Source of the DNA: a virus
Lineage: Duplodnaviria; Heunggongvirae; Uroviricota; Caudoviricetes; Thumleimavirales; Hafunaviridae
Reading direction: 5' to 3' (one strand)
Virus record (IMG/VR): IMGVR_UViG_2595698612_000001
Coordinates: 10,520 to 74,519 of that record
DNA: 64,000 nucleotides
The position numbers and the translations under genes are program-made. Positions 3,468 to 55,195 of this stretch are shown piece by piece (the first letter of the stretch is position 1; each line of letters starts with the position of its first letter). Under the pieces are notes generated by a model, which saw only the letters and a list, made by a program, of their open reading frames with translations, was not told where the DNA came from and did no database searches.

Positions 3468-4760
3468 ATGGCTGACTACGGCAACACTATCGAACCCGGT
3501 ATTGTTACGAACGTCAACTCGGCGCTTGCTGTCACTTCGAGTGGTGGCGCTCCCGCTGATGTTGGACTCGTTGGACAGGCTGACCTCGATGCGGGGACGG
3601 CTCAGGCGAACGCTGTCTATCAGGTCACTCGTGCGACGATGGCTCGTGAGTGGTTTGGCGAGGATAGCCCCCTCACTCAGAACGTCCTCGATGCTCTCGC
3701 GGAGGGAGCCTACCCGGTCTACGCGGTCGCGGTTGACCTCGTGGACGTTACGGGCGAAGACCTCTCCGGTCTTGCCTCGAACACGGGCACGCTGGCCGAG
3801 GGGCCGGTGAGCGAGGACGCCGCCGATACGGTGTTCACCATCAACGGCTCCGACCTCACGACCGTTCTGAAGTACGAAGACCTCTCTACTCTCTCGCCGG
3901 GTGCTGGCGAGGTCTACGTCAACCCATCGACGCGAGAGTTCAAGATTGACGCTGACGTAACCGTGGGCAACACGGGCGACTCCGTGGACTACGCCTACGG
4001 CGACTACGTTGCGGGCAATCAGGCTCTTGCTGACGACGCTGGTGGCGCGGTGGACTTCTTCGTTCCGCTGAGCGAGGACGCTGGCGCTACGCAGGACGCA
4101 CAGACCACGGTGGGTAACATGGCGAGCGAATACAACTTCGCAATCGCTATCGTCGGCGCTACGCCCGGCCTCGACCCGGCGAACTACTCCAACCAGTTCG
4201 ACGATTCTCGCGTTCAGGTCGTTTACCCGGCCCGCAACGCGGAGGGCTACTCCACGCTCGGTTCCTACGCCGGTCGGCGTGCGAAGCTCGGTATCACGAC
4301 TACGCCCATCAACAAGCGCCTCTCCACGCAGAAGTCGCTCGCTGTCAGTCTTGACCGCGCGGCCCGTGGTGCGCTGATTGACGAGCGCGTTGTTCCGCTG
4401 GCTGACGAGACGGAGGGCGCTCGGATTGCCGACGACGTGAACACCGTGAGCGACACGAACACGGACGAGGCGGGCATCCGCTTCGGCTTCACCCGGCTCG
4501 TGATGGACTACGTTATCACGGTCGTTCGCGTCAACGAACAGCCCTTCATCGGTCGGCTGAACAGCCGTGCGGTGCGGGCGTCCCTTGAGGGACTTCTGAG
4601 CAACCAGCTCAAGACCCTGAAGCGGTCGAACGCGATTATCGACTACAACGTGAACGTGTACCGTATCGACGCGACGAGCGCCGCCGTTGAGATTCAGGTT
4701 GAGACGGCCAAGCCGCTCCGCTTCATCGAGAACACGGTCACGATTGGCGCTTCGGCGTAA
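3468..4760 (+). CDS. contractile tail sheath protein (430 aa)
   Basis: N-terminus MADYxxxIEPGIVTNV resembles the sheath N-terminal consensus (M..Y..PGVYV.E). Gene order sheath-tube-chaperone-tape measure. Size typical of a sheath. Could alternatively be a capsid protein. Confidence 0.5.
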   Translation: MADYGNTIEPGIVTNVNSALAVTSSGGAPADVGLVGQADLDAGTAQANAVYQVTRATMAREWFGEDSPLTQNVLDALAEGAYPVYAVAVDLVDVTGEDLSGLASNTGTLAEGPVSEDAADTVFTINGSDLTTVLKYEDLSTLSPGAGEVYVNPSTREFKIDADVTVGNTGDSVDYAYGDYVAGNQALADDAGGAVDFFVPLSEDAGATQDAQTTVGNMASEYNFAIAIVGATPGLDPANYSNQFDDSRVQVVYPARNAEGYSTLGSYAGRRAKLGITTTPINKRLSTQKSLAVSLDRAARGALIDERVVPLADETEGARIADDVNTVSDTNTDEAGIRFGFTRLVMDYVITVVRVNEQPFIGRLNSRAVRASLEGLLSNQLKTLKRSNAIIDYNVNVYRIDATSAAVEIQVETAKPLRFIENTVTIGASA

Positions 4761-17881: not shown

Positions 17882-20299
17882 ATGTCCGTAGTCACTACTG
17901 AAACCGAAACCGAAGAACAGACTGTTGAAACCCCCATCAAGACCGCCGACGATTCTCTCACCGTAGAAGAACGCCTTACAGACAACGCTCTCCACGGTAT
18001 TCTCCCGGCCCGCTACTTCCGCAAAGACTCGGAGGGTAACATCATCGAGGATGCTGACGACCTGTTCCGACGAGTCGCTGAAAACGTCGCTGGAGCTGAG
18101 AACGACGAGGACTTCGAGAAGTGGGCTGACGAGTTCCAGTACCAGATGGAAACCCTCCGGTTCATGCCGAACAGCCCGACCCTGATGAACGCCGGGACGG
18201 ACATGAACCAACTCTCTGCGTGCTTCGTGATTGAACCCCGCGACGACATGGAAGACATTTTTGAGACGGCTCAGCAGGCCGCTCTCATCTTCCAGAGCGG
18301 GGGCGGCGTCGGCTATGCCTTCTCCCACCTCCGACCCAAGGGAGCGTTCATCAATTCGACTGGCGGCGAAGCGAGCGGCCCGGTGAGCTTTATGCGGGTC
18401 TTCGATGAGACGTGTAATCAGGTGAAGCAGGGCGGGAAGCGCCGGGGCGCTCAGATGGGTATTCTCCGCGCCGACCACCCGGACGTGGGCCGGTTCATCG
18501 TGGCGAAGCGGAACGAGGGCGACCTTGCGAACTTCAACATCTCGGTCGCTACGACGGACGCCTTCATCGAGGCAGTTGACTCACAATCTTCCTACACTCT
18601 CTACGACCCCGAGACGGACTACGAGGAGCCGTACACCGTGCGGGAGGCATCGGCCCACTTCTACTCCCCCGAGTATCAGGACAACCCGCGTGACGCCTTT
18701 GACGACGGCGAGGGCGCTATCGTAGAGGAGAACCTGTGGCGGGACTACGCCGACGAAATCGAGTGCGAGCTGTACGGCGAGCGCGTCTCCCTCCGCGAGA
18801 AGTGGGAGGGCCACGAGGGTCTTCGCCTCGAAGTGGGTGAGCCGATGGAGCTTCCCGCCGCGTTCATTTGGGACGTGATGATTGACGGGGCGTGGCGCAA
18901 CGGTGAGCCGGGACTGTTCAACTTCGAGGAGTCGAACCGCCAGCACTCCTTCGACGTGGACGAGTACCCCGAGTTCCGAATGAACGCGACTAACCCCTGC
19001 GCCGAGCAGATGCTCGTGGAGTACGAGGCGTGCAACCTCGGTCACATCAACCTCAGTCTGATGCTGAACGAGGACGCCCCGACCTACGACGAGTTCCTTC
19101 AGGACAAGCTGATGGACATTGCGAACGGCGACCTTTCCACCCGCGAAGCCGTGGAGTGGTACTTCGAGGAGGTCACGAACTTTGAAGACCTGAATCGAAC
19201 CATCGAGGCTGGTACTCGCTTCCTCGATAACGTGGTCACGCAGTCCGACTTCCCCATCCCCGAGATTACCGAGCGCGTCAACGGGATGCGGAAAATCGGA
19301 CTCGGTATCATGGGCTTCGCGCAGATGCTTTTCCAGATGGGGATTCCCTACGGCACGCAGGACTCCTACGAGATGGCGCGGTGCGTCATGCGGTACATCG
19401 ACCGGAAGGGAACGTGGGCGTCCCACAATCTCGCCAAGGAGCGCGGCGTGTTCTCCTACTGGGACAAGTCGAAGTACGCCGACCCGACCGAGTACGACGA
19501 GTGGTTCGCGGCCCGCACCGGGCTTGACCCGAACGACTGGAAGGGTGGGTTCCCCATCCGAAACCACAACATCACGACAATCGCCCCGACCGGGACGACC
19601 TCGATGATTGCGAACACGACGGGTGGGTGTGAGCCTGCCTACAACGTGGCGAACTTCAAGAACGTCAGCGAGGACATTCAGGGCGACGACCTGCTCGTGG
19701 AGTTTGACGACTACTTCCTTCGGACGCTCGAAGCGAACGACCTCGATGTGGAGAGCATCAAGGAGGAGGCCGAGCGGCTGATGCGGAACAACGAGTTCGA
19801 CGGCGTTGACGACCTCTCTATCCCCGAGGAGATAGCCGAGATTTTCGTCACGACGCAGGACTTGTCCTCCGAACAGCACGGACTGATGCAGAGAGCGTTT
19901 CAGGAGTTTTGTGACTCCGGCATTAGCAAGACGGTCAACCTCCCGAACAGCGCGACCCACGACGACGTGAGCGAAGCCTACCAGCTCGCCCTCGATGCGA
20001 ACCGGCGCGGCGCGGTTATCAAGGGCCTCACCGTGTACCGGGACGGCTCTCGGGACGTTCAGGTTCTCACGACGCGCGTGGACAACAATCTGGACGACGA
20101 GGGCGACCGCGACGACGACCTGCTCGAACTATACCTCAAGGGAGAGGTGAGTGAGAAGGCGGCGGTTCAGCTCGGTATCGTTGGCGAGGACGACGTAGGT
20201 TCGGACACGCTCACCTGCCCGGAGTGCGGTGACGGTGAGCTTGAGAAGACGGACGACTGTGCGGTGTGTCCCGAGTGCTGGTACTCGCCGTGCAAGTAG
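17882..20299 (+). CDS. nrdJ: ribonucleotide reductase class II, adenosylcobalamin-dependent (805 aa) with C-terminal zinc ribbon
   Basis: Catalytic-site motif TNPCAEQ...EACNLGHINL and overall class II architecture. C-terminal CPECG...CAVCPECWYSPCK. Confidence 0.9.
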   Translation: MSVVTTETETEEQTVETPIKTADDSLTVEERLTDNALHGILPARYFRKDSEGNIIEDADDLFRRVAENVAGAENDEDFEKWADEFQYQMETLRFMPNSPTLMNAGTDMNQLSACFVIEPRDDMEDIFETAQQAALIFQSGGGVGYAFSHLRPKGAFINSTGGEASGPVSFMRVFDETCNQVKQGGKRRGAQMGILRADHPDVGRFIVAKRNEGDLANFNISVATTDAFIEAVDSQSSYTLYDPETDYEEPYTVREASAHFYSPEYQDNPRDAFDDGEGAIVEENLWRDYADEIECELYGERVSLREKWEGHEGLRLEVGEPMELPAAFIWDVMIDGAWRNGEPGLFNFEESNRQHSFDVDEYPEFRMNATNPCAEQMLVEYEACNLGHINLSLMLNEDAPTYDEFLQDKLMDIANGDLSTREAVEWYFEEVTNFEDLNRTIEAGTRFLDNVVTQSDFPIPEITERVNGMRKIGLGIMGFAQMLFQMGIPYGTQDSYEMARCVMRYIDRKGTWASHNLAKERGVFSYWDKSKYADPTEYDEWFAARTGLDPNDWKGGFPIRNHNITTIAPTGTTSMIANTTGGCEPAYNVANFKNVSEDIQGDDLLVEFDDYFLRTLEANDLDVESIKEEAERLMRNNEFDGVDDLSIPEEIAEIFVTTQDLSSEQHGLMQRAFQEFCDSGISKTVNLPNSATHDDVSEAYQLALDANRRGAVIKGLTVYRDGSRDVQVLTTRVDNNLDDEGDRDDDLLELYLKGEVSEKAAVQLGIVGEDDVGSDTLTCPECGDGELEKTDDCAVCPECWYSPCK

Positions 20300-20396
20300 A
20301 CTGAGGTAATCAGTTAGCAAGCTTCCCCATCGGGCCTTACGGCTCGGTGGGGATTTTTTGCGTTTCGGGGGAGAGAAAGAGCCTCGATGCGTCTGT

Positions 20397-20585
20397 TCAC
20401 GAGAAGATTTCCTCGGGCGGGACGTTCCCGTTGAGGTGCTGTTGTTTCTCCCACTCGATTTCGCCGGAGATTTTCCCGTAGAGTTCTGCGGCGATGGTTC
20501 GGTCTTCGTAGTCGCGGTCGGGGTTGTCCTTGATGTGTTCCATTTCGTGTTCGAGGAACGCGAGTTGTTTCGGGGTCAACTCCAT
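20397..20585 (-). CDS. hypothetical protein (62 aa from internal ATG)
   Basis: Acidic coding-like ORF. TTTTATATACC box about 25 nt upstream of the ATG at 20585 suggests a leaderless transcript. Confidence 0.4.
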   Translation of the reverse strand: MELTPKQLAFLEHEMEHIKDNPDRDYEDRTIAAELYGKISGEIEWEKQQHLNGNVPPEEIFS

Positions 20586-20810
20586 ATAAAGAACCACACA
20601 CCGTGGGTATATAAAACGGGGGGTGTCGGGTGGGACTTTATTTCCCATCATTCGGTTGTGGAAACGCGGTGATACACGCACGGCATACGGGGCTATACCC
20701 CCTATTTATTTATAAGCAGAGTTGGTAGTAGAGGGTACAGAGGCACGCAGAAGGGGTAGTTACCGGCAAAGGTAGCCCCTTTCAGGGCCGAAGGCCACCT
20801 CGGTAAAGCG

Positions 20811-20857
20811 CGTCCTTGGTAAGGACGAGAGCGGGGGTTCAAATCCCCCCTCAGGCT
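20811..20857 (+). other. tRNA-Thr(GGU)-like 3' half (anticodon arm to acceptor 3' strand); candidate attP core
   Basis: CGTCC-TTGGTAA-GGACG anticodon arm and GGGGG-TTCAAAT-CCCCC T-arm are present. The 5' half does not fold as a tRNA. Lies immediately upstream of the integrase. Confidence 0.4.
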
Positions 20858-20868
20858 TTCAGCCTTCA

Positions 20869-20893
20869 GGGGGCTTCTCACCCCCTTTTGCGT
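20869..20893 (+). terminator. hairpin GGGGG-cttctca-CCCCC followed by TTTTG
   Basis: Seen in sequence directly after the tRNA-like fragment. Confidence 0.35.
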
Positions 20894-21073
20894 GCTTCTT
20901 GGGAGCGAAAAAATGCACACCAAGAAAGCACTCTACCCACAAACGTACACCCCCGCGCCGTCTTGCGATTCCGTGAACTGTCAGGACACTATAACTCTGA
21001 ACCCCGCGCGAGCGCGTATCCTCAACGGTGGTGTCCCGGCTTGAACCGGAACGACCCACTCGACAGCGTGGAA

Positions 21074-22234
21074 ATGAGCGCGGCATCCGAGGATATACCA
21101 CCCGCGCCCGAACCCATCGAGTTCGGCTTCCCACTCGTGAGCCAACGCTCGCGCGAAGACCTCGAACAGTTCGGCCTCAACATGGTACAAGACTACCACG
21201 ACTTCAAAGAGGAAGTCCTGACGTGGCTCGGCAACTACGGGAAGAACCCCGACAAGTACGAAGGACTCGCCCGCACCACGCTTGAGTCCACGCACTACAA
21301 GCTCGAAACCGTCTTCCGCTGGTTATGGAAATACGAGGGCCAATACACAACCACCTTCACGCCCGAACACGCGGATAAATTCATCTCGCTGTTGAATCAA
21401 GCCGACTCGATGATTGACAGCACCGTGCTTCACCACGCCAAGGACATACGCCGGTACTTCCGCTACTGTAACCACGCGCAGGGCAAAGACTACGATTGGG
21501 AACCCGACCTCGAACTCAGTCAGTCCAACGGCGACGAGCGAGACTACCTCCGACGCGCCGCGTTCGAGCCGCTGTACCAATCCGCGCTCAGTCACTCATC
21601 GGTCAAGTCCTACTACTCGTGTACGCCGGAGGAACGCGCCGAGTTGAAAACCTACGTCTCTCAGCGCCTCCAAGTCCCGAAGGAAAAAGTCGGGGCCGAC
21701 GAGTTCAAGCAAGCAAACTCGTGGAAGTACCCATCTATGATTGCGACGACTCTCGATACCGGGCTTCGACCCATCGAGGTCGGACGAGCGAAGGTGTCGT
21801 GGGTGAACCTCCAAGATAACGAGCTGAACATCCCGAAGGACGAATCCACGAAGAACGAGGGCCATTGGAACTGCGCGATTCAGAAGCGCACGGCGAAGGC
21901 GCTCGAACGCTGGATAGACGAGCGAGACGCTATCGAGAAGTACGACAGTCGGGACGAACTATGGCTCACGCAGAAAGCCCGCCCCTACAACTCCGACTCG
22001 TGTAACGGCCTGCTTGACCGAATCATCGAGTCGGGGAACGTCCCGATACCCGACCACCGGAAAGACGACCTCTCGTGGTACAGCATCCGCCACGGAGTCG
22101 CTACGTACTGGGCGAACCACGTCGGCCCCCACCACGCGAAAGAACAACTCCGGCACAAGAGCGTCACGACGACGATGAAGTACCTCCACTCGGACTCAGA
22201 CACCCGAGGGAGCGCGGTCGAACAAATCTGGTAG
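21074..22234 (+). CDS. int: tyrosine recombinase / integrase (start trimmed to ATG 21074)
   Basis: C-terminal catalytic region contains HxxR and the KYLH tyrosine (WYSIRHGVATYW...LRHKSVTTTMKYLH). The track's longer N-terminal extension overlaps the tRNA-like element and is rejected. Confidence 0.8.
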   Translation: MSAASEDIPPAPEPIEFGFPLVSQRSREDLEQFGLNMVQDYHDFKEEVLTWLGNYGKNPDKYEGLARTTLESTHYKLETVFRWLWKYEGQYTTTFTPEHADKFISLLNQADSMIDSTVLHHAKDIRRYFRYCNHAQGKDYDWEPDLELSQSNGDERDYLRRAAFEPLYQSALSHSSVKSYYSCTPEERAELKTYVSQRLQVPKEKVGADEFKQANSWKYPSMIATTLDTGLRPIEVGRAKVSWVNLQDNELNIPKDESTKNEGHWNCAIQKRTAKALERWIDERDAIEKYDSRDELWLTQKARPYNSDSCNGLLDRIIESGNVPIPDHRKDDLSWYSIRHGVATYWANHVGPHHAKEQLRHKSVTTTMKYLHSDSDTRGSAVEQIW

Positions 22235-22235
22235 G

Positions 22236-22721
22236 TCAGTCGTCGGCAATCGACGCGACCGACTCCATCCCCCGCTGATTCAATCGGTACTCCTTCTTCC
22301 GACCGTCATTATCGTGGGGTCGCTTCTCTATGACTCCGCGCTCCGACAGCTCCCACAGGATTTGGCTCACGTCGTCCGGGTCTATATCGCAGTCCTCGGT
22401 GAGAGCGGCCTTCACCTCGTTCGTCGTATGCCACTCGTCTCCATTGTGGTTGTAGAGGAACGTGGCGAGCTTCCGTGTTCGTGACCCCTCCTCGAAGGTG
22501 ACTAACTCTATCCCTCCCCCATCCGGTTCTCCGTCCCTCTCGATTTCCTCTCCCGTGATGTATTCCGTGAGGTCAATCGGTGACTCAGCCTCGATTGTCA
22601 CCCTGATGTTCTCGATGGATTCGTTGAACCCGACTTCCTCCATGAACTGATTGAAAGCATCGAGGGAGTTGTCGCCCGACAATTCCAGAGTCATAACCCC
22701 GTCTGATTGGTTTGACGACAT
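22236..22721 (-). CDS. winged-helix transcriptional regulator (161 aa), convergent with integrase
   Basis: C-terminal wHTH-like segment (VSQILWELSERGVIEKRPHDNDGRKKEYRLN). Acidic N-terminal domain. Confidence 0.5.
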   Translation of the reverse strand: MSSNQSDGVMTLELSGDNSLDAFNQFMEEVGFNESIENIRVTIEAESPIDLTEYITGEEIERDGEPDGGGIELVTFEEGSRTRKLATFLYNHNGDEWHTTNEVKAALTEDCDIDPDDVSQILWELSERGVIEKRPHDNDGRKKEYRLNQRGMESVASIADD

Positions 22722-22851
22722 AATTAAACGGTTCAGTACCCCGCCTGATAAAATCCGTGGCCCTCAGATGTTCCGCACTCGTACTAAAAACAAAAAAGCC
22801 CCCGACCACGGGGGGTCGGGGGTGGCAAACACTACTGCATCTTTAGAACCG

Positions 22852-23142
22852 CTACGCCGTCGCTGGTTTGTTCTGCTCGCTATACTTCCAGAACTCAGTT
22901 TCCTCAGAGTGTAACCGAGCGTGGTCAGACGCCGACATGAGACTCAGATTAGACGGTCTGTTGTCCCACCGAACGCCGTTGAGGTGGTGGACTTGATTCT
23001 GACAGACAGCCTCGAAGCCGTACTCCGCGAGCATAATTAACCGATGAATCGCAACCTCCCGCTGGACGCCCTCGTACTCATTCGTCGCTATCTCGTAGCC
23101 GTGATGCCAGCAATGACCGGCTGGACTTGTATCAGACGACAC
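22852..23142 (-). CDS. HNH endonuclease (96 aa)
   Basis: HHLNGVRWDNRPSNLSLMSASDHARLH matches the HNH His-Asn-His motif; Cys/His-rich N-terminus. Confidence 0.65.
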   Translation of the reverse strand: MSSDTSPAGHCWHHGYEIATNEYEGVQREVAIHRLIMLAEYGFEAVCQNQVHHLNGVRWDNRPSNLSLMSASDHARLHSEETEFWKYSEQNKPATA

Positions 23143-23143
23143 G

Positions 23144-24508
23144 TTACTTCTTGAAGTTCATCACGGGCCGGAGACGGTCAACGACCTCTGCGGTCGGCTT
23201 GATGTGTTCCTCGATGAGTTCCGGCGGCTTGTAGGCTTCCGGCACTTCGTCACCCGGCACACGGGCCGAGTACGTTCCGTTCTCGTACATCCGCTTGCGG
23301 GCTTCGTCGGCGTCGAACTGCTCGTGTGCCCATCCACGGCTACCAAGTCGGCCCGCTCCGTGGGGAGCCGAGTAGTTGTAGTCCGGGTTCCCGTTCCCGA
23401 TACACAGAAGCGTTCCGTCCTCCATGTTCATCGGGATAGCGAACAGATTACCGGCAGAGGCTCGCGTGGAACCCTTCCGAATCATCATATCCTCGAAGTC
23501 CACGTAGTTGTGCGGGGAGTCGAGGAACTTGGTAATCGACGCATCGAGGGTTTGAGCCACTTCCTGAACCATCAGGAGGCGATTGAAGCTCGCGTAAGTC
23601 TGAGCGAGCATCATATCGTAGTAGTACCCGTAGGCTTCGCGGCCTTCGAGGTAGTCGAGGTCTTTGTTCCGGTTCGCGTCCGGGGAGTACGACTTGATTT
23701 CCTCCCCGATACGCCCGATTTCCTCGCCGTCGTTGTAGAGCTTGATTTTCTCCCAATCCGGGGAGCCGTCCGGGTTCGCGTAGTGCTTCAACCGCTCGCC
23801 CATCTCGCCCCACTTCACGTCGGCGTCACGGTGTTCGGTCGCCTTCTCCTGCCAGTACGCCGCGACCTTCTGACCGAGGTTGCGGGAACCGGAGTGAACG
23901 ACGACCCACAGCTCGTCGGACTGCTCGGACTCGGCAATCTCGATGAAGTGATTACCGGAGCCGAGCGTTCCGAGGGAACGGAGCGCGTATCTCTTTCTGA
24001 TTCCGACGCGCTTGCACATCTTCTCGAAGTAGTCCGGGCGGAACATCCCCTCGTCCCGGCTCTCGTAGTCGAAGTCCATCGCGTCGTAGAAGTGGAGTAG
24101 CTTCTCGTTGGCCTTCCACCACGGGAACGACCACTCAAGGTCAACCTCCGGCTCTTTGTGAACGCGACCAGTCCCCATCGGAATCCGGTCGCGCACCTCT
24201 TTGTTCACCTCGCGGAAGTCGTCTATGTCGGAGGGCTTGTCGGCTTCCGACACATCGAGGCGGGCCGCTGTCATTCCACAACCAATATCCCCGCCTACCG
24301 TTTTCGGAATCACGCGGTCTGTCAGAGGCATCGAGAACCCGACGATACAGGCAGGCCCGAGGCCTCCGTGACAGTCCGGCATGAACTTCACCGGGTTCTG
24401 GAACGCCTCGTGGTTAACCATCTCCTTTATCTCCTCTTGGAGTCCGTCTTCCACTTCTTCTTCTGGTAGGTGTACCTCTGCTGTCGTACTGCTTCCTTCT
24501 ACAATCAT
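23144..24508 (-). CDS. rtcB: RtcB-family RNA 3'-phosphate ligase (454 aa, no intein)
   Basis: Hallmark motifs DIGCGM, GSGNHFIEI and the HGAGR nucleophile-His motif. Full-length RtcB architecture. Confidence 0.85.
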   Translation of the reverse strand: MIVEGSSTTAEVHLPEEEVEDGLQEEIKEMVNHEAFQNPVKFMPDCHGGLGPACIVGFSMPLTDRVIPKTVGGDIGCGMTAARLDVSEADKPSDIDDFREVNKEVRDRIPMGTGRVHKEPEVDLEWSFPWWKANEKLLHFYDAMDFDYESRDEGMFRPDYFEKMCKRVGIRKRYALRSLGTLGSGNHFIEIAESEQSDELWVVVHSGSRNLGQKVAAYWQEKATEHRDADVKWGEMGERLKHYANPDGSPDWEKIKLYNDGEEIGRIGEEIKSYSPDANRNKDLDYLEGREAYGYYYDMMLAQTYASFNRLLMVQEVAQTLDASITKFLDSPHNYVDFEDMMIRKGSTRASAGNLFAIPMNMEDGTLLCIGNGNPDYNYSAPHGAGRLGSRGWAHEQFDADEARKRMYENGTYSARVPGDEVPEAYKPPELIEEHIKPTAEVVDRLRPVMNFKK

Positions 24509-30898: not shown

Positions 30899-31372
30899 TC
30901 ATCGCTGTTTGGTGATTTTGACCTCAGAACGCTCCCACGTTGTTTTCGCCGTCGCTTCCGGCGCGACGTGCTGTACGTCCTCGAAACCGTCTCGGTTCCG
31001 CTCGATGCGGCTCTTTCCTTCGATGATGGTGTTCGCTTCGGGGTCGTATGCGACGACCTCGCCATCTAAGAACGCCACCGGGTCGTACTCGATAACCCGG
31101 CTGTCGTCGCGTTCCACGATGAAGATGGACTTGACGCCCATCCCACGAACTTGATTCAGAACATCCTCGGAGATTGCGTACCCCGCGAACTTGCGGAAGT
31201 AGTGCTGGTCGGCTTCACCCTTCCCGTGTCGATTCCGGGGGAAGGCGGCAACCCGACCACGGTGAGCGTCCTCTCCGAAGTGGCCGATTACTACATCCGA
31301 TTTACGTATCGGAGCAACGAGTGTCGTTTTCGGTGCTGGTGTTTTTGCGTAGTCGTGTAGTGTGCTACTCAT
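30899..31372 (-). CDS. hypothetical protein (157 aa)
   Basis: Coding-like ORF upstream of polB. Confidence 0.45.
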   Translation of the reverse strand: MSSTLHDYAKTPAPKTTLVAPIRKSDVVIGHFGEDAHRGRVAAFPRNRHGKGEADQHYFRKFAGYAISEDVLNQVRGMGVKSIFIVERDDSRVIEYDPVAFLDGEVVAYDPEANTIIEGKSRIERNRDGFEDVQHVAPEATAKTTWERSEVKITKQR

Positions 31373-31553
31373 TCTCTCGTTGTCGTTCCCGCATCGTCGC
31401 GTTCTTCGCTATCTCCAAGCAGAAATGGCAGAGCGACTTGCCGGGAATTGGCTCTCTATTATCGCACTTTCGGCATTTCGTCATGTCTCTGGATTCGTGC
31501 CGCACCGCCAGCGGATGCTGACGGCGTTTCGACCGAAACAGAGATACAGAGAA

Positions 31554-41752: not shown

Positions 41753-41823
41753 GTCTGGACGGACGGAATCGAACCGCCCTTGGGAGGGTTACAGCCTCCG
41801 CGTTCGCCTTGAACACTTCCAGA
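41753..41823 (-). tRNA. tRNA-like gene, possible tRNA-Tyr(GUA) with non-canonical acceptor/D-arm
   Basis: Perfect anticodon arm GGAGG-CTGTAAC-CCTCC and T-arm GGCGG-TTCGATT-CCGTC. Acceptor 6/7 bp and D-arm short (GTTC-AAGGC-GAAC). Boundaries approximate. Confidence 0.35.
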
Positions 41824-52876: not shown

Positions 52877-52955
52877 TTCTTAGAAGGTTCTGGTCAGCTC
52901 GTCACAGCCGGGGCGACCAACTCCCGACGACGCCCCAAAGTGGGGCGTTTCGCCG

Positions 52956-54955: not shown

Positions 54956-55195
54956 AGTAGACTCGTTGTTTGCTCCTCCGCCTTTCCGTGGCTGGCATCA
55001 TCAGACTACCCGAACCACCGGGTAGTGACACCCCTCGATGGGGTGTTTCGCCATTAGAATATCTCAGGTCGAACTACCTCGAACACGATTATCGCAATCC
55101 AGAGAACGAAGGACGCAAGAAGAACCTCAGCAGGAATCATACCGGGACAGCGGCCCCGCCGCCACCCCGTCGCTTGAAGAACTCTCGTAGGAGGT

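Follow-up and report, generated by a model that had tools for sequence, protein, structure and literature searches.

The closest described systems are the attachment sites of the HF1-group viruses. In the passages of Dyall-Smith et al. 2020 (PMC7230728) that treat this feature, it is proposed as an attP that every HF1-group virus carries, with Halorubrum tailed virus 8 (HRTV-8) as one of the seven considered, and two proviruses, Hdep-prov1 of Halorubrum depositum and ELPmg-prov1, are reported to sit in tRNA-Thr genes, with both ends given. One section of Russ et al. 2021 (PMC8707807) is headed 'tRNA-like gene HrrHF2_450 of HF2 is attP', and Liu et al. 2021 (PMC8651126) described integrase-encoding hafunavirus proviruses with flanking direct repeats. 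Since papers of 2020-2021 on this virus group already contain the site, the tRNA-Thr gene that it targets and natural proviruses, we consider the attachment site itself as already known; what HRTV-8 possibly adds is a repeat that brackets the site, a single-base difference between core and host, and errors in the public annotation. The attPs of HF2 (HrrHF2_450), Serpecor1 (HrrSp1_205) and Hardycor2 (HrrHc2_210) occupy the locus homologous to that of HRTV-8 and share with it a partial tRNA-Thr(GGT), a small ORF of the CxxC type, a site-specific integrase and 57 nt of identity to the Halorubrum tRNA, whereas the HRTV-8 record carries a plain tRNA label and omits the small ORF.

Bacterial attachment sites within tRNA genes, of the anticodon-loop class and served by the tyrosine integrases of temperate phages and integrative islands, include those of mycobacteriophage L5, HP1 and P4-like islands. 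As in these, the tRNA segment running from the crossover to the 3' end regenerates the gene, int adjoins the site and the stem would supply inverted half-sites; unlike them, the HRTV-8 site belongs to an archaeal tailed virus with an archaeal host, and its crossover is inferred from sequence. In SSV-type systems attP lies inside int, which is split on integration. SSV1 (Sulfolobus fuselloviruses, tRNA-Arg) is likewise an archaeal virus that uses a tyrosine recombinase to integrate into a tRNA gene, but the HRTV-8 site lies upstream of int, in a non-partitioning arrangement as found in pNOB8-type and bacterial systems. The arrangement is not of the SSV type, because int is intact in the lysogen junctions described below.

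The tRNA-like element and its neighbourhood

The window, that is, the whole 64,000-nt stretch of DNA analysed, represents the last 64,000 nt of the linear HRTV-8 genome (KC292020 / NC_021321, 74,519 nt); subtracting 10,519 from a position in the HRTV-8 record gives the window position used here. In a megablast search of phage records, window 19000-24000 matched HRTV-8 over its full length at 100% identity and 39 other records at 85-98% identity, which places the virus in Haloferacalesvirus (Hafunaviridae). The isolation host is Halorubrum sp. B2-2; according to the relevant passages of PMC7230728, the isolates of HRTV-8 and related viruses are lytic, and a lysogen of HRTV-8 has not been reported. 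The GenBank record lists a 'tRNA-Thr (ggt)' as gene 40 (record 31306-31376, window 20787-20857), followed by an integrase (window 21041-22234), a convergent hypothetical protein, an HNH endonuclease and RtcB; true tRNAs are encoded by HRTV-8 in addition to the RtcB ligase. Labels for the same feature conflict among the relatives, ranging from a 71-nt tRNA-Thr to a 132-nt 'tRNA-Pro(CGG)', with an 83- or 89-nt tRNA-Thr and a 57-nt partial 'probable attP' as further variants, the wording 'probable attP' thus already standing in the GenBank notes of sister viruses. The features of the locus are as follows.

20703-20715, plus strand: AT-rich TATA-box region TATTTATTTATAA, assigned by homology to HF2, identical or nearly so in 15 relatives
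20739-20756, plus strand: left arm of inverted repeat I1, 18 nt, AGAGGCACGCAGAAGGGG, starting 2 nt after the predicted transcription start
20757-20800, plus strand: rest of the viral left (P) arm, containing a 14-nt pseudo 5' end (20787-20800)
20801-20857, plus strand: putative attP core, 57 nt, reaching from the D-loop as far as the discriminator base, 56/57 identical to Halorubrum tRNA-Thr(GGU)
20811-20827, plus strand: anticodon arm CGTCC-TTGGTAA-GGACG, anticodon GGT at 20818-20820
Between anticodon arm and T-arm, plus strand: variable loop of 5 nt, from the sequence
20833-20849, plus strand: T-arm GGGGG-TTCAAAT-CCCCC, from the sequence
20850-20856, plus strand: acceptor 3' strand CTCAGGC, with the discriminator T at 20857
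20869-20889, plus strand: hairpin GGGGG-CTTCTCA-CCCCC plus TTTT in the right (P') arm, stem 20869-20873 / 20881-20885, TTTT 20886-20889
20882-20899, plus strand: right arm of I1, 18 nt, CCCCTTTTGCGTGCTTCT, overlapping the CCCCC strand of the hairpin
20897-20925, plus strand: hairpin TCTTGG / CCAAGA, invariant and paired in 15/15 viruses, with the small-ORF ATG (20913) in its loop
20913-21044, plus strand: conserved small ORF, 43 aa, MHTKKALYPQTYTPAPSCDSVNCQDTIT..., its stop overlapping the integrase start
21041-22234, plus strand: tyrosine integrase, 397 aa, TTG start at 21041 (GenBank), alternative ATG at 21074
22236-22721, minus strand: convergent protein, 161 aa, winged HTH by annotation in relatives

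The tRNA-like 3' half described in the first-pass annotation is present in all its parts, namely anticodon arm, T-arm and acceptor 3' strand. The 47-nt core proposed there is real and occurs once in the window (0/100 shuffles contain it), but was drawn too short, since the block shared with the host extends over 57 nt and starts in the D-loop. By contrast with this block, the 14 nt immediately 5' of it (20787-20800) match the host tRNA at only 3/14 positions.

A 220-nt region around the element is common to 41 phage records, all of them Hafunaviridae of the genus Haloferacalesvirus, from which 15 representatives were aligned. Among the 15, window 20807 to 20861 forms a near-invariant block. 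Upstream of ~20801 the HJTV-2/HSTV-3 clade carries unrelated sequence, so that conservation begins within the annotated 'tRNA' and not at its 5' end, and in the 15 relatives the point where viral conservation begins is the point where host identity begins. Only four core positions vary: tRNA position 47 (G/C), T-stem positions 50 and 64, and one T-loop base. The G-to-C change at position 50, the sole change in the T-stem, is always compensated by C-to-G at 64, and it tracks host tRNA alleles, as the same two versions are found in viruses and hosts. G is present at position 47 in HRTV-8 (G20831), HRTV-14, HRTV-17, HRTV-18 and Serpecor1, in place of C. Across the sister isolates, whose sources in the records retrieved include Thailand, Italy, Israel, Australia and China, integrase identity is at least 89%. 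The protein search of phage records returned no free-virus integrase between 89% and 34% identity, and more divergent complete attP sites for covariation are therefore lacking.

The adjacent gene encodes a tyrosine integrase (Pfam PF00589, Phage_integrase, E = 2.5e-16, residues 225-385), as anticipated from the sequence, although the GenBank start is the TTG at 21041 rather than the previously assumed 21074; TTG is used in HRTV-8 and Serpecor1 versus ATG in most relatives. Residues R243, K271, Y347, R350, H372 and Y381 are invariant between HRTV-8 and 14 homologues of 41-76% identity. This catalytic set is of the tyrosine-recombinase type with Tyr replacing the first His, and the expected RHR/Y signature thus reads R-K-Y-R-H-Y and not strictly R-H-R-Y. 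A phmmer search with the integrase against PDB sequences found nothing. The small ORF, unannotated in the HRTV-8 record, is annotated in HF2, Hardycor2, Serpecor1 and others. For the 161-aa convergent protein the Pfam matches (MarR_2/PadR) were all sub-threshold, and regulation of lysogeny, as suggested in the first-pass annotation, is a candidate role for it; a gene in this wHTH position adjoins int in the provirus junctions L043, L021 and L162.

Host tRNA-Thr genes and integrated relatives

We scanned 185,579 species-representative genomes with a 50-nt block that was degenerate at the four variable positions, which returned 20 loci, all haloarchaeal. In 19/20 the block is preceded by GCCTGGGTAGCTTAGCGGTAA, yielding a canonical tRNA-Thr(GGU). 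The C47 / GGGGG version was found in six Halorubrum genomes (trapanicum, sodomense, distributum, xinjiangense, GN11 and Atlit-26R), the G47 / GCGGG version in Haloquadratum, Haloglomus, Haloarchaeobius and Ca. Halobonum, and the C47 / GCGGG version in Natronomonas and Halobellus marinus. Thus, the host tRNA-Thr with a matching 3' part that the first-pass annotation had called for does exist, in several Halorubrum species, as a contiguous block equal to the 3' portion of the gene up to its 3' end at 56/57 positions, the sole difference being a host C for the viral G at tRNA position 47. The combination of G47 with the GGGGG/CCCCC T-stem is absent from the 185,579 species-representative genomes, for which 56/57 is the best match; inside a tRNA, the exact HRTV-8 core was found only in lysogen junction L043, where G47 may be of viral origin. 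For HF2, the section of PMC8707807 on this element reports that H. trapanicum and H. sodomense match exactly over the 57 nt, and that the lytic host, H. coriense, has no matching tRNA.

Four natural junctions of the attL type (L043, L162, L021 and L028) consist of an intact host tRNA-Thr, called by ARAGORN, after which come the viral right arm, the small ORF and an integrase of 71-93% identity. The BLAST match to the window has its left end exactly at 20801 in each of the three that were compared (L043, L021 and L028). Junction L043, recovered by scanning metagenomes for the exact HRTV-8 core fused to the 5' half of the host gene, has its ARAGORN tRNA-Thr at 9-80, with G47 and the exact core, and continues with the viral right arm, the small ORF, a 93%-identical integrase, the wHTH gene and RtcB. 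The order in L162 is host DUF7114 gene, Halorubrum-type tRNA promoter, intact tRNA-Thr and an HF2-type right arm, with a 93%-identical integrase and then a 155-aa protein in the wHTH position further downstream. The remaining two are an IMG/VR contig (L021) and Halobellus ordinarius (L028). One junction is of the attR type, in a Haloferacaceae MAG (L027), where the viral promoter, left arm and core are followed by a non-viral flank and homology to the window spans 20680-20857, ending at the discriminator. Integrated relatives with attL and with attR therefore both exist, although these ends come from separate loci and not from one provirus; of the resident proviruses flanked by core repeats that had been predicted, four attL junctions and one attR junction were recovered, but no single provirus with both ends.

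More distant integrases of 66-76% identity, from Halolamina salifodinae, Halorubrum ezzemoulense and metagenome contigs, lie directly after an intact tRNA-Thr(GGU), with the host DUF7114 gene upstream in all except the contig-truncated L160, and the elements differ in cargo. A Haloferax relative occupies the same slot with a tRNA copy that is not canonical. The shared slot indicates that tRNA-Thr(GGU) is the target of the whole integrase family. Among viral contigs, the integrase search recovered six isolate genomes and the L021 contig only, and a homologue search with the neighbouring gene gp39 added one left arm, which is truncated (L168). The invariant 15-mer TTGCGTGCTTCTTGG gave 102 loci in viral contigs and was set aside; a sequence of this length can match by chance among 2.9 million contigs, and the recognisable loci were known isolates.

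Crossover position and nature of the site

The anticodon arm (20811-20827) is the probable site of strand exchange, providing two inverted core-type half-sites around a 7-nt overlap, as judged from identity boundaries in related, partly decayed elements. The left limit of tRNA identity falls at position 16 in sites of the HRTV-8 type, at 22 in those of the HJTV-2 type and at 30 in a decayed third attR-like copy at L027, and the right limit at position 42 (L028, second integrase) or 45 (Haloferax L158/L159), where attL is without a canonical tRNA. The segment common to all boundaries is CC-TTGGTAA-GGAC, that is, the anticodon loop and the inner stem pairs. Sublocation classes of tRNA integration, reportedly distinguished by Williams in 2002, include a well-known anticodon-loop class in which the stem forms inverted core half-sites, and the common segment fits this class. 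The position-47 mismatch of HRTV-8 lies 3' of the segment, and its base would travel into attL, as L043 shows.

According to the mechanism that we propose, the linear HRTV-8 genome would circularise before integration, and the tyrosine integrase would pair the 57-bp block with the same stretch of the host tRNA-Thr(GGU) gene, the strands being exchanged most probably within the anticodon loop or next to it. The resulting attL would start with the promoter and the 5' 15 nt of the host gene, pass through the shared 57 nt and end in the viral right arm, which brings the small ORF and int; it would again be a complete tRNA-Thr gene. The resulting attR, in which the viral promoter and left arm lead into the 57 nt and then into the 3' flank of the host, would be a non-functional pseudo-tRNA.

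The reading of the element in the GenBank record, a working viral tRNA-Thr(GGU) gene, draws on its tRNA annotation, on an Rfam RF00005 score for 20787-20857 of 33.4 bits, marginally above the gathering score of 29, and on the presence of true tRNAs and an RtcB ligase in the same virus. However, ARAGORN called no tRNA at the element in HRTV-8, Serpecor1 or HSTV-3, and the two clear tRNAs of HRTV-8 score 73 bits. The Rfam alignment shows two mismatches in the acceptor stem (5/7 paired), a D-stem with 2/4 pairs intact and a gap at positions 8-9; as these mismatches and the gap are all in the 5' part, the score derives mainly from the 57 host-identical bases. Folded alone by minimum free energy, the 71-nt element is not a cloverleaf because its 5'-terminal 18 nt pair among themselves; cloverleaves are obtained with both the host tRNA and the attL hybrid. 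The 5' half thus fails to fold as a tRNA, just as had been noted from the sequence. Nor is the gene conserved as a whole, since the 5' part differs between virus clades while the 3' 51-57 nt are kept, and the passages on the element in PMC8707807 give it as non-functional in the judgement of the authors. A working tRNA gene is, accordingly, highly improbable. Even less can be said for the element being the attL or attR of an already integrated element. The resemblance is general, attR likewise being a viral left arm followed by the core, but the window is collinear with and 100% identical to the packaged linear HRTV-8 genome, the core is single in the full 74.5-kb virion genome, being absent from the first 10.7 kb of the record, which include the 10.5 kb outside the window, and the sequence on either side of it is viral and is shared, with conservation, by 40 sister virus genomes. 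A second copy, which would have betrayed an integrated end, is found neither in the window nor in the rest of the virion genome. Single copy and viral flanks identify the HRTV-8 site as an attP and refute the attL or attR reading, to which we assign virtually no probability.

The third alternative accepts the site and its integrase as inherited from a temperate ancestor but holds that HRTV-8 no longer integrates, the integrase having another role, e.g. in resolving genome multimers, or none. Consistent with such a relic or re-purposed module, the isolates are lytic, the core has one mismatch to every sampled host tRNA, and int starts with TTG in HRTV-8 and Serpecor1 instead of the ATG of most relatives. 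Against it, the integrase has been kept at 89% identity or more across widely sourced sister isolates and the core is nearly invariant, integrases of 93% identity occur in natural lysogens, including one whose core is exactly that of HRTV-8, and the position-47 mismatch falls outside the predicted crossover region; we therefore consider a relic unlikely. The proposal that the virus carries the 3' portion of a host tRNA gene as an attP beside its integrase is supported by the 56/57 core, by the attL and attR junctions and by the single copy, and window 20801-20857 is very probably the attP core of HRTV-8, a member of Haloferacalesvirus, Hafunaviridae. HRTV-8 itself is presumably capable of integration.

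The integrase transcript and inverted repeat I1

Primer extension in HF2 mapped transcription starts at T-40936 and T-40979, and the part of PMC8707807 on this region reports that attP, the small CxxC ORF and int form one transcript from a promoter upstream of attP, with its start at T-40936, and that the TATA box also fires in the opposite direction. In the alignment T-40936 falls on window 20737, and ~25 nt upstream of it stands the conserved TATTTATTTATAA, the predicted promoter of the attP / small ORF / int transcript in HRTV-8. The GGGGG-N7-CCCCC-TTTT hairpin seen earlier behind the tRNA fragment, a candidate terminator, is present at 20869-20889 but is unremarkable (z = -1.1; 28/200 shuffles fold as well), is not listed by the terminator scan and loses its stem in the VOLN27B/HJTV-2/HSTV-3 clade, where the T-run is largely kept. 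Given the co-transcription reported for HF2, a complete transcription stop at the hairpin is unlikely in the free virus. In a lysogen, the hairpin directly follows the host tRNA gene that integration has regenerated, and the T-run could act as terminator of this gene.

The core is bracketed by I1, an inverted repeat of 16 Watson-Crick and 2 G-T pairs whose midpoint, 20819, coincides with the middle of the anticodon loop. No 18-nt inverted repeat with 16 matches occurred in 100 dinucleotide shuffles of 20650-20950 (maximum 15), and TTTGCGTGCTTCTTGG in the right arm is invariant in all 15 viruses. A general operator motif was considered and rejected, the sequence occurring at these two places only in the 64 kb. 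In the fold of the predicted leader RNA (20737-20912), at -90 kcal/mol (z = -5.3), I1 forms the closing stem, and RNAalifold recovered I1 in all 15 viruses. I1 and the 'terminator' hairpin are alternatives, since in the leader fold the CCCCC strand pairs with the left arm of I1. Most of the variation in I1 consists of A/G facing an invariant T, an exchange that RNA wobble tolerates, and 97.4% of the cells are paired; as only one pair is doubly changed and 38/500 shuffles score as high, RNA pairing of I1 remains a candidate, and inverted arm-type integrase sites would also explain the pattern. Targeted term searches of Dyall-Smith 2020 and Russ 2021 found no mention of I1 in the passages they returned, and its bracketing of the core is possibly new.

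Integration would separate the two arms, sending the promoter and left arm to attR and placing the right arm, T-run, small ORF and int behind the host tRNA. One can tentatively imagine, although we think it doubtful, that the core sits in a 5' mRNA leader at the tip of an I1 stem that rivals the hairpin, so that integration splits an RNA element and rewires integrase expression, on the principle of lambda sib retroregulation. Enzymes of tRNA processing could, in addition, act on the tRNA-like leader.

For this virus group, the HRTV-8 GenBank and RefSeq records mislabel a very probable attP as a tRNA gene and omit a conserved small ORF. The position-47 variant, unmatched in the sampled hosts yet present in a natural lysogen junction, suggests candidate hosts for lysogeny, and I1 may offer a handle on integrase expression or attP architecture in archaeal tailed viruses, for which little is known of either.

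RNA features and annotation of the HRTV-8 window

In the GenBank records of the sister viruses (L001-L015), the attP feature carries conflicting annotations, namely a 71-nt tRNA-Thr, a 57-nt partial attP, or an 83- or 89-nt tRNA-Thr, and in HRTV-19 it is annotated as a 132-nt tRNA-Pro(CGG). Other RNA features fall elsewhere in the window:

Other RNA features of the window
20324-20353: strong 13-bp hairpin followed by TTTTTT, directly past the ribonucleotide reductase gene
41753-41822, minus strand: ARAGORN call of 'tRNA-Tyr(gta)'
52889-52955, minus strand: type II hammerhead ribozyme match (45.4 bits, above the Rfam gathering score)
54986-55053, minus strand: type II hammerhead ribozyme match (51.2 bits, above the Rfam gathering score)

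A conserved hammerhead is mentioned for the virus group of HRTV-8 in Dyall-Smith et al. (PMC7230728), where the tRNA-Arg of this virus is also reported with a 28-nt deletion. The 'tRNA-Tyr(gta)' call, for which Rfam at the gathering threshold gave no support, may be a remnant of that tRNA-Arg. The hairpin past the ribonucleotide reductase gene is a far better terminator candidate than the GGGGG/CCCCC hairpin near the attP core (20869-20889).

Conserved elements around the attP core and ahead of the integrase

Three further elements lie around the attP core and ahead of the integrase gene:

Conserved elements around the attP core
20739-20756 and 20882-20899: 18-nt inverted repeat flanking the attP core on both sides (16 of 18 Watson-Crick pairs plus 2 G-T pairs)
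20897-20925: invariant hairpin TCTTGG/CCAAGA, with a 17-nt loop that contains the ATG of the small ORF
20913-21044: conserved 43-aa ORF (M..KKALYPQT.TPAPSCD...CQDTIT), with a stop codon that overlaps the integrase start

The inverted repeat is kept in all 15 relatives and has no other occurrence within the window; its left arm begins 2 nt past the transcription start inferred by alignment to HF2. The repeat could represent either the stem of an RNA leader or arm-type integrase sites. The 43-aa ORF, which is without annotation in the HRTV-8 record, occurs in viruses and also in integrated elements that are not viral. At the nucleotide level its codons CCGTCTTGCGAT, like the stretch TGTCAGGACAC, are invariant or nearly so, even between elements with integrases 66-75% identical to that of HRTV-8, and this near-invariance despite integrase divergence suggests that a DNA or RNA signal overlaps the ORF at these positions.

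Two short assemblies from the same run (ERR10323222), L168 and L163, are each broken within the tRNA core, one finishing with the viral left arm and the other beginning with the right arm, which is how an assembler behaves when viral and host surroundings share the core within a single sample. The left arm in L168 contains GTACGC in place of the GCACGC of all isolates, a change that would give a U-G wobble if the right arm were unchanged.

The tRNA-Thr(GGU) locus as an integration hot spot

Integration has a hot spot at the tRNA-Thr(GGU) locus. Haloquadratum walsbyi J07HQW2 (L025, L026, L041) has three tRNA-Thr copies on one scaffold, each followed by an integrase homologue; the Haloferacaceae MAG locus with the attR-type junction (L027) contains a tRNA along with two additional copies of the left arm and core of the virus, at spacings of 1.4 and 1.7 kb; and the attL-type junction in Halobellus ordinarius (L028) has two tandem integrase genes. 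Downstream of the integrase relatives in L147-L159, mixed cargo occupies the same tRNA site (among it DUF4365, HEPN/ApeA, SIR2-like and MmeI-type restriction-modification genes), and it looks like the content of a defence island rather than of a tailed virus.

In a related element type with an integrase 67-68% identical, attL diverges from the tRNA sequence past GGAC(GAG), and ARAGORN made no tRNA call on this attL.

Loci bearing on the related element type
L158/L159: about 2790-2900
L028: reverse complement of 4381-4700 and 901-1300
L021 (attL-type junction): 1-124
L035

L028, L021 and L035 each have a complete tRNA-Thr, and the sequence upstream of it is alike across genera, which suggests that the related element brings, at its opposite end, both a promoter and a tRNA 5' half of its own.
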